A DNA stretch of 39,376 bases, taken from contig JBDRVN010000010.1 in the NCBI GenBank assembly GCA_039801885.1, positions 1 to 39,376 of the forward strand, read 5' to 3'. A program made the position numbers. The DNA comes from a candidate division WOR-3 bacterium. GTDB taxonomy: Bacteria; Hydrothermota; Tepidihabitantia; Tepidihabitantales; DTDR01. Positions within the stretch are counted from its first letter, which is position 1; each line of letters starts with the position of its first letter. Positions 38,501 through 39,376 of the stretch are shown piece by piece.

Positions 38501-39376
38501 ATAAAAAGAATAAGATTGCTCGCATTTTCACCTCCTTACCACATTGTTTGGGATGTAGTGCGAATTTTTCGAAGGGAGGATAAGAGAATAAGAATTATGA
38601 GTTCGGGTTCACATGGCTAGCGCTACATCCCAAATAAGATTCGGGGGTCTAAAATTAGCCTCCCTTTTGAGTTCATAGCCCAGTCCTCATTTTTAGGCCC
38701 CCGTTAACTTTGAGGGGGAGGAGGAGATGAAAAAAAAGGGCGCTGGTATTACTGAGTGAAACCGTTCAAAAAAATAGAGGATGCCACCTCTTAATAATAT
38801 TTTAGAGGCGAGACGAACGGACCCAGGGTACCAGTAGCCCTTTTTTTTAGTTTTTTTTAAGATGGATAATGAATAAAAGGAGGGGTGGGGTGAAGAAATT
38901 TTCCCTTTTATTAATTTTGTTCTTCGCTTGTTTAGAAAAACCAAAATTACCAGAATGGGATACAGAAATAACAATTCCCTTATTTAAAAAAAATTTTACA
39001 ATCTTTTCTTTTTTAGATTCTCATTACTTTATTTTTAATTCTGATTCAACCTTTAATTTTTTTTATCAAAGTAGTTTTGATACGATTTTTCCGATAACAA
39101 AAATTAATTTTAACATCGATAGATTTAATAGTAATTATTATTTTAATAATTTTGAAATTTGTGATACTTTTTATACTGAAATAATTATTAATATTGAGGA
39201 GATTTTAGGGGTTATGATTTCTGATAGTTTTATTATTTTACCACCAATAAATCTACAAAAAGAATTACAAAAAGTAATTATTATAAACAATTTTCATCGA
39301 GGTATTATTGAAAAATGTTTTTTGACTTTAGACATCGAAAATCATTCACCAATAAATTTTAGATGTTTTGGAATCA

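Follow-up and report, generated by a model that had tools for sequence, protein, structure and literature searches.

Several large structured non-coding RNAs in bacteria, among them OLE, GOLLD, ROOL, HEARO and raiA, are represented in Rfam and have functions that are unknown or only partly known. To our knowledge, bacteria have few large multi-domain RNAs beyond the classical set, and every one of them has led to new biology. A different class, the Qrr and GlmY types, comprises sigma-54-dependent base-pairing sRNAs; the consensus of sigma-54 promoters is GG-N10-GC, spanning the -24 and -12 elements. Published work also describes BoxA elements that precede long untranslated RNAs and CRISPR arrays (PMC5725501, PMC7862264), with GYTCTTTAANA as the boxA consensus (PMC5725501). 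Non-rRNA targets of BoxA are the subject of Baniulyte et al. 2017 (PMC5725501), and the BoxA of CRISPR-array leaders is attributed to Stringer et al. 2020, as cited in PMC7862264.

The window analysed here is the whole stretch of 39,376 nt, to which all positions refer, from the genome under study (G000). An initial annotation had described in it a ~119-nt RNA leader of a lipoprotein/DUF5723 operon. We favour a different reading, with a probability of roughly 0.6, in which this element is domain D, the 3′-terminal long hairpin (P1-P2-P3) of an undescribed large structured non-coding RNA with its own sigma-54-type promoter and boxA (Table 1). In the AT-rich genus of G000 (g1), D would probably serve as a leaky terminator as well, with read-through carrying the lipoprotein/DUF5723 operon.

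The RNA shares features with each of these known systems. Like the BoxA-dependent rRNA and CRISPR-array leader transcripts, it would be a long structured untranslated transcript headed by a boxA. Its product, however, is neither rRNA nor crRNA, and its promoter is of the sigma-54 type, whereas sigma-70-type promoters precede the rRNA and CRISPR boxA copies of G000. It resembles OLE, GOLLD, ROOL, HEARO and raiA in its size of 400-900 nt, several conserved domains, covarying stems, narrow lineage and position as a GC-rich island in AT-rich intergenic DNA, but it differs in matching no Rfam model, in carrying its own sigma-54-type promoter and boxA, and in its fixed synteny with rimP-nusA-infB. 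A sigma-54-type promoter with upstream repeated sites and, in g1, single-stranded pyrimidine-rich segments complementary to ribosome-binding sites are reminiscent of the Qrr and GlmY sRNAs. Unlike these, the RNA is four to ten times longer, has a boxA and shows complementarity over 18-22 contiguous nt, and no targets were seen in families f2 or f3. Riboswitches and other cis leaders likewise lie 5′ of a same-strand gene, as the RNA does in most genomes, and have in common with it a covarying closing stem, a conserved core and, in some lineages, a U-run. In contrast to riboswitches, domain D is not bound to a single gene family (it lies elsewhere in 6 of 29 genomes), forms one domain of a larger RNA, and has a rod-like interior with no evident ligand or expression platform. 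Full-text literature searches turned up no description of a sigma-54-type promoter combined with an rRNA-type boxA and a conserved fold of 400-900 nt. With such an RNA, BoxA/Nus control would reach as far as regulatory RNA in an uncultured lineage of hot springs and sediments.

Table 1. Features of the RNA locus and its flanking genes, in window positions (g1, genus of the genome studied; f2 and f3, families)
Feature	Position	Strand	Basis or remark
rimP, first gene of rimP-nusA-infB, divergent from the RNA	37745-38215	-	ORF list; Pfam RimP_N, E 3.3e-20
TTGTCGCA, possible sigma-54 activator binding site (putative)	38345-38352	+	TGTCGCA-type motifs repeated 5′ of the promoter, in both the f2/f3 alignment and g1
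Sigma-54-type promoter candidate, TGGCAT-N5-TTGA (GG-N10-GA)	38444-38458	+	conserved in g1; canonical in f2/f3
boxA GTTCTTTGAAAA, candidate NusB/NusE loading site	38481-38492 (12 nt)	+	invariant in g1
Pyrimidine-rich segment ATTGCTCGCATTTTCACCTCCTTA, complementary to ribosome-binding site and start codon	38515-38538	+	near-invariant in g1
Domain B, long hairpin with variable tip	38546-38637	+	MFE fold
Domain C: 8-13-bp closing stem, internal loop TTAGCCTCC, inner hairpin with loop containing AGCCCAGTCCT	38643-38702	+	
Domain C apical segment TGAGTTCATAGCCCAGTCCTCA, candidate trans-pairing seed	38668-38689	+	antisense matches to gene starts
Purine-rich GAGGGGGAGGAGGAG, likely internal partner of 38530-38537	38712-38726	+	MFE fold and g1 consensus fold
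Domain D (the original element)	38738-38840	+	model R1 gives the window copy 88.9 bits
P1	38738-38754 with 38824-38840	+	covariation on unfitted alignment
P2	38762-38767 with 38815-38820	+	MFE fold
D core AGAGGATGCCACCTCT	38776-38791; second AGAGG at 38804-38808	+	
U8 run directly 3′ of P1	38841-38848	+	sequence and terminator scan; with P1, candidate leaky intrinsic terminator in g1
Lipoprotein gene, 5′ part; ribosome-binding site AAGGAGGGG, GTG start at 38890	38877-39376	+	ORFs

Conservation at this locus reaches well beyond the ~119-nt boundaries first drawn around the element. Positions 38510-38850 form a GC-rich island (45% G+C, against 14-25% in the flanks), and the whole island is kept at 77-92% identity in all five other g1 genomes. 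Conserved sequence and structure extend ~270 nt 5′ of D in g1 and ~600-750 nt in f2 and f3; the full RNA measures ~420 nt in g1 and ~750-900 nt in other families. Its parts follow one another, 5′ to 3′, as sigma-54-type promoter, boxA, long variable hairpin B, near-invariant domain C and domain D, and f2, f3 and f4 show recognisably the same domains. A 21-mer from domain C recovered 24 metagenome loci; 23 of them have domain D downstream, and the 24th ends at a contig edge. The sole exception among the order loci read is a partial second copy of D in G012, with neither domain C upstream nor a boxA. For annotation, a model of this RNA family should cover the larger RNA and treat the ‘119-nt leader’ as its 3′ domain instead of a cis element specific to one gene.

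The folding statistics had been assigned to the wrong segments. The -120 kcal/mol reported for the 119 nt belongs to the 381-nt stretch 38480-38860 (-121 kcal/mol, z -4.2), and the z of -6.8 corresponds to the minus strand of the 119 nt (z -6.9). A structured element is nevertheless present on the + strand at 38738-38848, where it folds as RNA with -42.1 kcal/mol and a z of -5.0. Its reported absence from Rfam holds, both for the element and for related loci: Rfam 15, whose covariance models include RNase P, 6S, tmRNA, SRP and large ncRNAs, returned only three chance matches in positions 37500-39376 (E 1.2-5.3, all 5′ of the element) and none at E<=1 for seven loci of f2, f3 and f4. RNase P RNA, 6S RNA and tmRNA were rejected as identities because those RNAs map to other loci (RNase P RNA in 5/5 genomes, 6S RNA in 2/5 and tmRNA in G000).

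Domain D is defined chiefly by P1, whose covariation was counted on 23 sequences aligned with MAFFT, without fitting to a model (A4), the counted structure being P1 and a 4-pair hairpin. On A4, 95.1% of the P1 cells are paired; the figure for the whole counted structure is 94.6%, against 42.6-54.3% when slid. Both sides have changed in 10 of the 16 P1 pairs, and 33 cells are compensated, compared with 8.3±2.3 in shuffles (0 of 500 as high). The P1 covariation first claimed from model-fitted alignments is thereby confirmed, and the strand signal in P1 is clear, with 46 G-U or U-G cells against a single C-A. P2 closes the interior in the MFE fold of 36 of 38 distinct copies. Further in, the helices of D differ between families: P3 (UGCC:GGCA) is formed in 28 of the 38, and the g1 type, in which CCUCU pairs with the AGAGG 3′ of it, in 6. 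Alternative pairings, in which one CCUCU has two possible AGAGG partners, were found in g1 only. The core, initially described as invariant, has variants in several lineages among the 38 copies. In these folds, the interior of D appears as a rod-like hairpin, without a multi-stem junction that might form a pocket.

The upstream domains also carry evidence of conserved structure. Three adjacent pairs of domain B are compensated in G002 (alignment A2), and its f2/f3 equivalent is a GCGGAC...GTCCGC stem. Domain C is near-invariant in f2 and f3. On a 23-sequence alignment (A5), 91.9% of its cells are paired, compared with 29-69% slid, and 9 are compensated against 2.8±1.4. A short ORF from 38727 (MKKKGAGITE) was rejected, its frame being shifted by indels within the genus.

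At the 5′ end, the g1 promoter motif is present in the four A2 rows that reach that far and in all six g1 rows of a longer alignment. The strict form TGGCA[CT]-N6-TGC[AT], a canonical GG-N10-GC, stands at the homologous place in 13 of 16 f2 and f3 loci, and the looser GG-N10-G[CT] in 21/21 metagenome loci with enough upstream DNA. The rpoN gene is present in 5/5 genomes, G000 included. Sigma-54 may drive the RNA in g1 too. Two observations count against this: the -12 element there reads TTGA or TTGT instead of GC, and TGGCA[TC]-N5-TTG[ACT] has 23 occurrences in the genome, many within genes. The upstream TGTCGCA-type motif says little in favour of an activator site, because the genome holds 45 copies.

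BoxA accompanies the RNA closely, being found in 23/23 loci with the RNA, in 0/17 without it, and in 20 of 21 metagenome loci. Near-identical copies lie in the 16S leader (C2:36617), the 23S leader (C2:60138) and the CRISPR leader of G000, and the same motif occurs in the 16S leaders of G003, G010, G014 and G020. Five of the eight strict matches in G000 are at transcript heads (16S, 23S, CRISPR array, trpS and the RNA). Judged by its sequence, the boxA at this locus may load a Nus antitermination complex onto the RNA.

Model R1, built in this analysis, reproduced the range first reported: the RNA occurs in 14 of 151 phylum genomes, all in one order, with one match in G000 and none in families outside the order. 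Within the order, 29 of 66 genomes have it and none of the ten f5 genomes does. The lipoprotein gene lies directly 3′ of the RNA on the same strand in 23 of the 29 RNA-bearing genomes and in 23 of the 40 lipoprotein loci examined. The element is not, however, always 5′ of this gene. In the remaining six genomes, the RNA adjoins rimP or nusA instead (R1 scores: G020, 83 bits; G046, 74; G026, 62; G039 and G041, ~53; G062, 31). A lipoprotein orthologue lies elsewhere in G020, G026, G039 and G041, is reduced to a weak distant match in G046 and is absent in G062. A tRNA-Ala(UGC) follows the RNA in G046, G026 and G039, U6 and then convergent genes follow it in G020, and in f4 it lies downstream of infB on the same strand. 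Searches beside rimP in f5 (10 genomes), G008, G018, G017 and seven g26 genomes found the RNA in G057 only. Syntenic with rimP-nusA-infB and present with or without the lipoprotein operon, the RNA would, in the favoured reading, constitute an independent gene.

The lipoprotein gene continues on contig C26, where the DUF5723 gene is next (E 1.8e-15). A Pfam search of its fragments gave no match, and a protein-cluster search returned ‘hypothetical protein’ clusters only, most often from Bacteroidota. Beyond the DUF5723 gene on C26 lies an 850-nt gap, which resembles plain AT-rich DNA and gave no match to Rfam.

These features suggest a model of expression. Transcription would start ~12 nt after the sigma-54-type promoter, a Nus complex would be recruited at boxA, and the transcript would fold into hairpin B, domain C and domain D. 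In AT-rich g1, P1 and U8 probably end part of the transcripts, giving a stand-alone RNA, while the remaining polymerase would read through into the lipoprotein/DUF5723 operon, 40 nt downstream. No sigma-70-like site was found on the + strand between 38403 and 38950, which leaves the operon with no promoter-like site of its own. The single hint of expression, an RNA-library contig that crosses from the RNA into the lipoprotein gene (described below), also speaks for read-through. The separate promoter-like site of rimP noted initially is present on the - strand (TTGACT-16-TATAAT, 38250-38223), as is the terminator-like site, at 38825-38841 plus U8. Reading P1 and its U-run as a terminator is plausible for AT-rich lineages, with U4-U8 after P1 in the six g1 genomes, but not beyond them, since at least 5 U within 8 nt 3′ of P1 occur in just 14 of the 38 distinct copies. 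P1 also encloses 69 nt, unlike ordinary terminator hairpins with a short loop.

The same observations bear on a rival account, which we consider unlikely, in which the whole 420-900-nt RNA is a giant cis 5′ leader. In this account, CACCUCCUU (38530-38538) and the CCUCU of D would pair by turns with purine runs inside the RNA or with the next gene's ribosome-binding site, setting translation of that gene, and D would be the platform nearest that site. The frequent same-strand position of the lipoprotein gene is in its favour, as are the 24 of 38 copies without a U-run after P1; in f2, most copies have P1 without one, and conservation continues to the start codon, so that the role of a long leader and nothing else is conceivable there. 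The two possible AGAGG partners of one CCUCU in g1 fit as well. The RNAalifold consensus for g1 has 38516-38529 paired to the lipoprotein gene at its ribosome-binding site and start, and 38531-38540 paired to 38712-38726, but these long-range pairs never covary and are G-U-rich, and CACCUCCU is complementary to any strong ribosome-binding site. A 459-nt RNA-library contig from a G005-like relative spans both RNA and coding sequence. It covers 38523-38545 and 38635-38844, then runs 151 nt into the ribosome-binding site and coding sequence, although it may contain DNA, shows neither strand nor ends, and stops at 38523, ~50 nt short of the predicted start. A leader of this kind sits poorly with a boxA typical of untranslated RNA products. 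It fits as poorly with the six genomes where the RNA is complete but no same-strand protein gene follows, the RNA being succeeded by tRNA-Ala in G046, G026 and G039 and by convergent genes in G020.

A still less probable alternative, close to the initial annotation, is that the 119 nt alone act as a ligand- or protein-sensing leader, riboswitch-like or an attenuator, which controls the lipoprotein/DUF5723 operon through the P1 terminator. P1 covariation, the conserved core, U8 after P1 in g1 and the alternative AGAGG/CCUCU pairings there are all compatible with it. It does not explain, however, why domain C lies upstream of D in 23 of 24 metagenome loci and in all order loci read except the partial G012 copy, or why D lies away from the gene in six genomes. 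The inner architecture, moreover, varies by family (P3 in 28/38, g1 type in 6/38) and is rod-like with no junction pocket, and the terminator tail is confined to 14/38 copies. What was described as a self-contained leader makes up the 3′-most domain of an RNA of 420-900 nt, which appears to have its own sigma-54-type promoter and carries a boxA.

Conservation at the DNA level, for instance as a control region for the divergent rimP operon, is scarcely credible, and so is a small gene on the minus strand. In favour of such readings, divergent genes flank the region, the 119 nt fold slightly better as the minus strand (-44.1, z -6.9), and that strand has a GAGGA-N7-ATG at 38688-38674, where g1 shows ORFs of 17 to 68 aa. 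These ORFs, however, agree in neither length nor frame (17 aa in G000, but 67-68 aa in G004 and G002), and no minus-strand ORF is conserved in f2. The G-U bias of P1 (46 cells against one C-A) points to RNA, and the RNA is not a rimP control region, as the f4 copy sits on the same strand as infB and 3′ of it. In f2 and f3, an apparent gene start on the minus strand, ‘MAERP’, was rejected, since its frames run for only 5-87 codons before a stop and show no conservation.

Under the favoured reading of D as the 3′ domain of a large non-coding RNA, we tentatively consider a function in trans. The RNA might be a ‘multi-seed’ antisense regulator, sigma-54-controlled and boxA-protected, whose single-stranded modules each mask the ribosome-binding site and start codon of secreted or surface-protein mRNAs, while read-through of D switches on the lipoprotein/outer-membrane-protein operon. 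Such modules might be two loops of domain C, one at 38668-38689 and the internal one at 38654-38676, together with segment 38515-38538. Conceivable targets in G000 include the GH123-like hydrolase, giant SBBP beta-propeller proteins and a 340-aa protein. Domain D could then act as both a stabilising 3′ hairpin and a valve setting the ratio of regulator RNA to operon mRNA. If this were true, one signal would swap one set of envelope proteins for another.

The complementarity behind this proposal is confined to g1. No target-type complementarity was found in the g6, f3, g18 and g12 genomes, and g6 has only a same-sense second locus with a 26-mer in common. AGGACTTGGGC is no commoner than its reversed control, and the RNA of G007 has no extra match in its own genome. 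Within g1, three upstream RNA segments are 18-22-nt antisense matches to ribosome-binding sites and start codons of secreted-protein genes, and of the 12 short matches found elsewhere, 11 run antisense to the start of a gene. These matches provide a concrete, testable set of candidate targets. All four G/C-containing exact matches of at least 16 nt in G000 are at start codons. The segment 38668-38689 is antisense over 22/22 nt to a GH123-like gene (C11), spanning its ribosome-binding site, ATG and first codons, and has a 16-nt antisense match to C5:32282. Its complement, GAGGACTGGGC, has six copies in G000, against ~0.04 expected from base composition, five of them at mRNA 5′ ends. For 38515-38538, exact antisense matches of 18 nt fall on gene starts at C19:25151 and C10:19885, and the segment also matches orthologous gene starts in G002, G003 and G005.

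The element initially annotated as a short leader is domain D of a new, larger plus-strand RNA with a sigma-54-type promoter and a boxA. It lies in a 653-nt spacer between rimP and a GTG-start lipoprotein gene on contig C10 of the source genome (G000; 1.56 Mb, 31% G+C), and runs labelled hot springs metagenome contain 70-80% of the words sampled from the stretch. G+C content is 45% across 38510-38850, against 14-25% in the surroundings. The non-coding spacer measures 650 nt in g1 (the genus of G000), 620 nt in family f4 of the order and ~1000 nt in families f2 and f3.

Within g1, the whole 340 nt is retained at 77-92% identity in five other genomes. 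Outside the genus, blastn detects the 3' part only; reading of related loci showed the upstream parts to be conserved as well. Domain B forms a long hairpin whose tip varies; three of its adjacent pairs are compensated in the related genome G002. Domain C is almost invariant around CATCTTAGCCTCCTTCTTGGG...AGCCCACGCCCAAGTCCT in f2 and f3 and is recognisable in g1. In alignment A5 (23 sequences, leaving out the near-duplicates G005, G010, G028 and G040, as well as G012, where domain C is unrecognisable, and G039, with a misplaced anchor), 91.9% of domain C cells are paired, compared with 29-69% for slid partners, and 9 are compensated, compared with 2.8 ± 1.4. A 21-mer of domain C retrieves 24 metagenome loci. 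In 23, R1, our model of domain D, has a match on that strand 70-185 nt further downstream, and the remaining locus is truncated by the end of its contig. Full-text literature searches found no description of the RNA. The f4 genome G012 holds a second, partial copy (G012:C2:12925-13033, minus strand, L101; 50 bits) running from hairpin B to domain D, with no boxA or sigma-54 motif nearby; it precedes three plus-strand ORFs.

Far upstream, an alignment of 14 f2 and f3 loci contains several plus-strand elements: TGTCGCA-type sites, which are repeated, a GG-N10-GC motif of sigma-54 type, and G[CT]TCTTT(G)A(C/A)AA with T-N-GG after it. From this boxA region, conserved blocks extend as far as domains B, C and D. 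The strict promoter pattern occurs in 13 of 16 f2 and f3 loci, and the boxA pattern in all 23 loci that carry the RNA and in none of 17 that lack it (10 from f5, five from f2 and two paralogue loci). Metagenome loci reaching 700 nt or more upstream have the promoter in 21/21 cases and boxA in 20/21. Both motifs have counterparts at the homologous place in G000, and rpoN was found in all five genomes tested, including G000.

The organism's own transcript heads support the reading as boxA. Five of the eight strict matches in G000 closely follow a promoter, at the heads of the 16S rRNA, 23S rRNA, CRISPR array, trpS and large RNA transcripts, and the same motif is present in the 16S leaders of G003, G010, G014 and G020. 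Passages of PMC5725501 give the BoxA consensus as GYTCTTTAANA and, together with passages of PMC7862264, place BoxA ahead of long non-coding RNAs and CRISPR arrays. Copies of boxA (GCTCTTTGAAAATT...) are located at C31:4440 (minus strand, L084), ~350 nt before the CRISPR array, and at C52:10114 (minus strand, L085), ~100 nt before trpS, each preceded by a sigma-70-like promoter.

Positions of the RNA domains, candidate signals, neighbouring genes and related elements
Feature	Position	Strand	Basis or remark
Sigma-54-type promoter candidate	38444-38458	+	TGGCAT-N5-TTGA at homologous place
boxA	38481-38492	+	GTTCTTTGAAAA at homologous place
Domain B	38546-38637	+	
Domain C	38643-38702	+	
Domain D	38738-38840	+	
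rimP	37745-38215	-	Pfam RimP_N, E 3.3e-20
Lipoprotein gene	GTG start 38890, off contig end, resumes on C26	+	ORF listing
DUF5723 gene	C26, after lipoprotein gene		E 1.8e-15
~16-codon proline-rich ORF	G004:C22:81049 (L018), G002:C5:17048 (L019), G005:C45:11514 (L021)		
Common ~100-nt 5' UTR	G000:C19:25258, C22:8220, C22:1107	-	
Common ~100-nt 5' UTR	G003:C13, C20; G005:C22		
g6 26-mer recurrences	G010:C3:2201, G014:C5:125565, G040:C1:164213, G053:C95:1797		L154-L157

The structure of domain D was analyzed in A4, a MAFFT-only alignment of 23 loci (six f1, two f3, one f4, 14 f2), comprising every core-motif carrier among the 40 lipoprotein loci read. RNAalifold predicts a 16-pair closing stem, P1. 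Together with a 4-pair hairpin it has 94.6% of cells paired, compared with 42.6-54.3% for slid partners, and 95.1% by itself. Ten of the 16 P1 pairs change on both sides, and compensated cells number 33, against 8.3 ± 2.3 after shuffling (0/500 shuffles). The covariation of P1, for which fitting of the alignments to the model had been a caveat, thus holds on an unfitted alignment. P1 contains 46 G-U/U-G cells and a single C-A, which identifies the plus strand as the RNA strand. A short ORF with a strong ribosome-binding site (MKKKGAGITE, 38727-38759), overlapping the 5' strand of P1, was rejected because its frame is lost within the genus.

Folding energies of the 119 nt are -42.1 kcal/mol (z -5.0) for the plus strand and -44.1 (z -6.9) for the minus strand; the -120 kcal/mol in the initial annotation fits the 381-nt segment 38480-38860 instead (-121, z -4.2). 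Its statement that the element belongs to no Rfam family stands, as Rfam 15 returned three chance matches (E 1.2-5.3), none on the element. For the interior helices, 44 matches from 45 sources were aligned to R1 (A6; 38 distinct sequences, the divergent G057 copy being missed). This set includes 15 of the 24 metagenome loci, leaving out eight duplicates and one cut by a contig end. Interior folding forms the P2 closing helix in 36 of the 38 distinct copies and P3 in 28, where AGAG..UGCC pairs with GGCA..CUCU and CCUCU stays in the terminal loop; the g1-type fold, with CCUCU paired to the second AGAGG, appears in six. These foldings predict a rod-like hairpin of ~35 pairs rather than a multi-stem junction. 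Of the 38 copies, 14 have a U-rich tail (at least 5 U in 8) after P1: five of the six from g1, the f3 type, G020 and a few more. In f2, further hairpins mostly take the place of the tail.

The initial annotation proposed a candidate cis-regulatory leader RNA of the lipoprotein/DUF5723 operon. Its observations largely stand, including the distribution, which R1 reproduces (14/151 phylum genomes, 0 matches in families outside the order); the interpretation stands only in part, the element being one domain of a larger RNA. Within the order, R1 matches 29/66 genomes (f1 6/6, G000 included; f3 2/2; f4 1/4; f2 20/44; f5 0/10), and each of the 10 f5 genomes lacks a copy in the spacer next to rimP. 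Matches lie far from the lipoprotein orthologue in G020, G046, G026, G039, G041 and G062; the orthologue is absent from G062 and has only a weak, distant match in G046. At the loci read in five of these six genomes the RNA is complete, from the promoter motif and boxA (in some a one-base variant) through the upstream blocks to domains C and D, and in each it diverges from rimP or nusA; for G041, adjacency to rimP/nusA was taken from coordinates. Conversely, the lipoprotein gene of f5 and of genera g17 and g12 comes after NIF3-like and zinc-ribbon genes (labelled from sequence), and the RNA does not precede it. The rimP-nusA-infB operon, rather than the lipoprotein gene, is thus the RNA's constant neighbour. 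In G012 (f4) this operon is inverted, and the RNA follows infB on the same strand.

In G020 the RNA is followed by U6 and then convergent genes. In G046 (L099), G026 (L100) and G039 (L102), domain D is followed on its own strand, at a distance of 103-124 nt, by tRNA-Ala(UGC), an order of boxA, structured RNA and tRNA-Ala that recalls an rRNA operon; one or two G+C-rich hairpins occupy the interval.

In g1, transcription may read through into the lipoprotein gene. No plus-strand sigma-70-like site was found between 38403 and 38950, and the U8 run lies just 40 nt from the ribosome-binding site. A 459-nt contig (depth 13.8) of a metatranscriptome library, from a G005-like relative, covers 38523-38545 and 38635-38844 and runs 151 nt further, into the ribosome-binding site and coding sequence. 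This hints weakly at read-through, being an assembled contig whose strand and ends are not visible, from a library that may include DNA. The C10 end (39190-39376) and the C26 start (C26:3-180, L024) encode the same lipoprotein stretch with several amino-acid differences, so the assembly break probably reflects strain variation.

An antisense regulator pairing with gene starts in g1 is a tentative reading that we consider rather unlikely. Of 12 short blastn matches read outside the RNA's own place in g1 genomes, 11 are antisense to a gene and span its ribosome-binding site and start codon. For the domain C loop (38668-38689), the match to the start of the gene for a GH123-like secreted protein (PF13320, 3e-19) is 22/22, and the orthologues in G004 and G005 are matched as well. 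Segment 38654-38676 has its match in the leader of a proline-rich 16-codon ORF (G004, G002 and G005), and 38515-38538 at the starts of genes for giant SBBP beta-propeller proteins (G000, G002, G003 and G005). All four exact complementary matches of at least 16 nt in G000, plain A/T runs excluded, fall on start codons (C11, C19, C10:19885, C5:32282). The loop complement GAGGACTGGGC has six copies in G000, compared with ~0.04 estimated from base composition: one is the RNA itself, and five sit 10-15 nt past TTGACx-N17-TATAAT-like promoters, which would place them at mRNA 5' ends. Five other g1 genomes hold 17 copies, against one for a reversed control, and nine of the 12 outside the RNA precede a same-strand gene. 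We do not make this the main claim because the matches did not extend to the other families searched and 38524-38537 is the plain complement of a generic strong initiation region, AGGAGGTGAAAATG.

In genus g6, a 26-mer of the large RNA's 5' region (TTGGTGGGTTGGGAAGGAGGGATACC) recurs same-sense within a separate hairpin also containing GGGAAACAAGG; this hairpin has no Rfam match and may be a small paralogous RNA. The proline-rich ORF (MFVRFVPPPPLPVPPK), whose leader is complementary to domain C, has a strong ribosome-binding site, and a terminator-like hairpin comes after it. A third conserved non-coding context (...GGAGAGA..-GAGGACTGGGCGCAA...), which no gene immediately follows, also contains GAGGACTGGGC (G004:C86:32836, L184; G003:C13:2574, L179; G002:C18:27221, L180). 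A common structured 5' UTR, without an Rfam match (L159), starts GAGGACTGGGCATAAT, contains the segment pair GGGGGTGG...CCACCCT and precedes very large secreted repeat protein genes.
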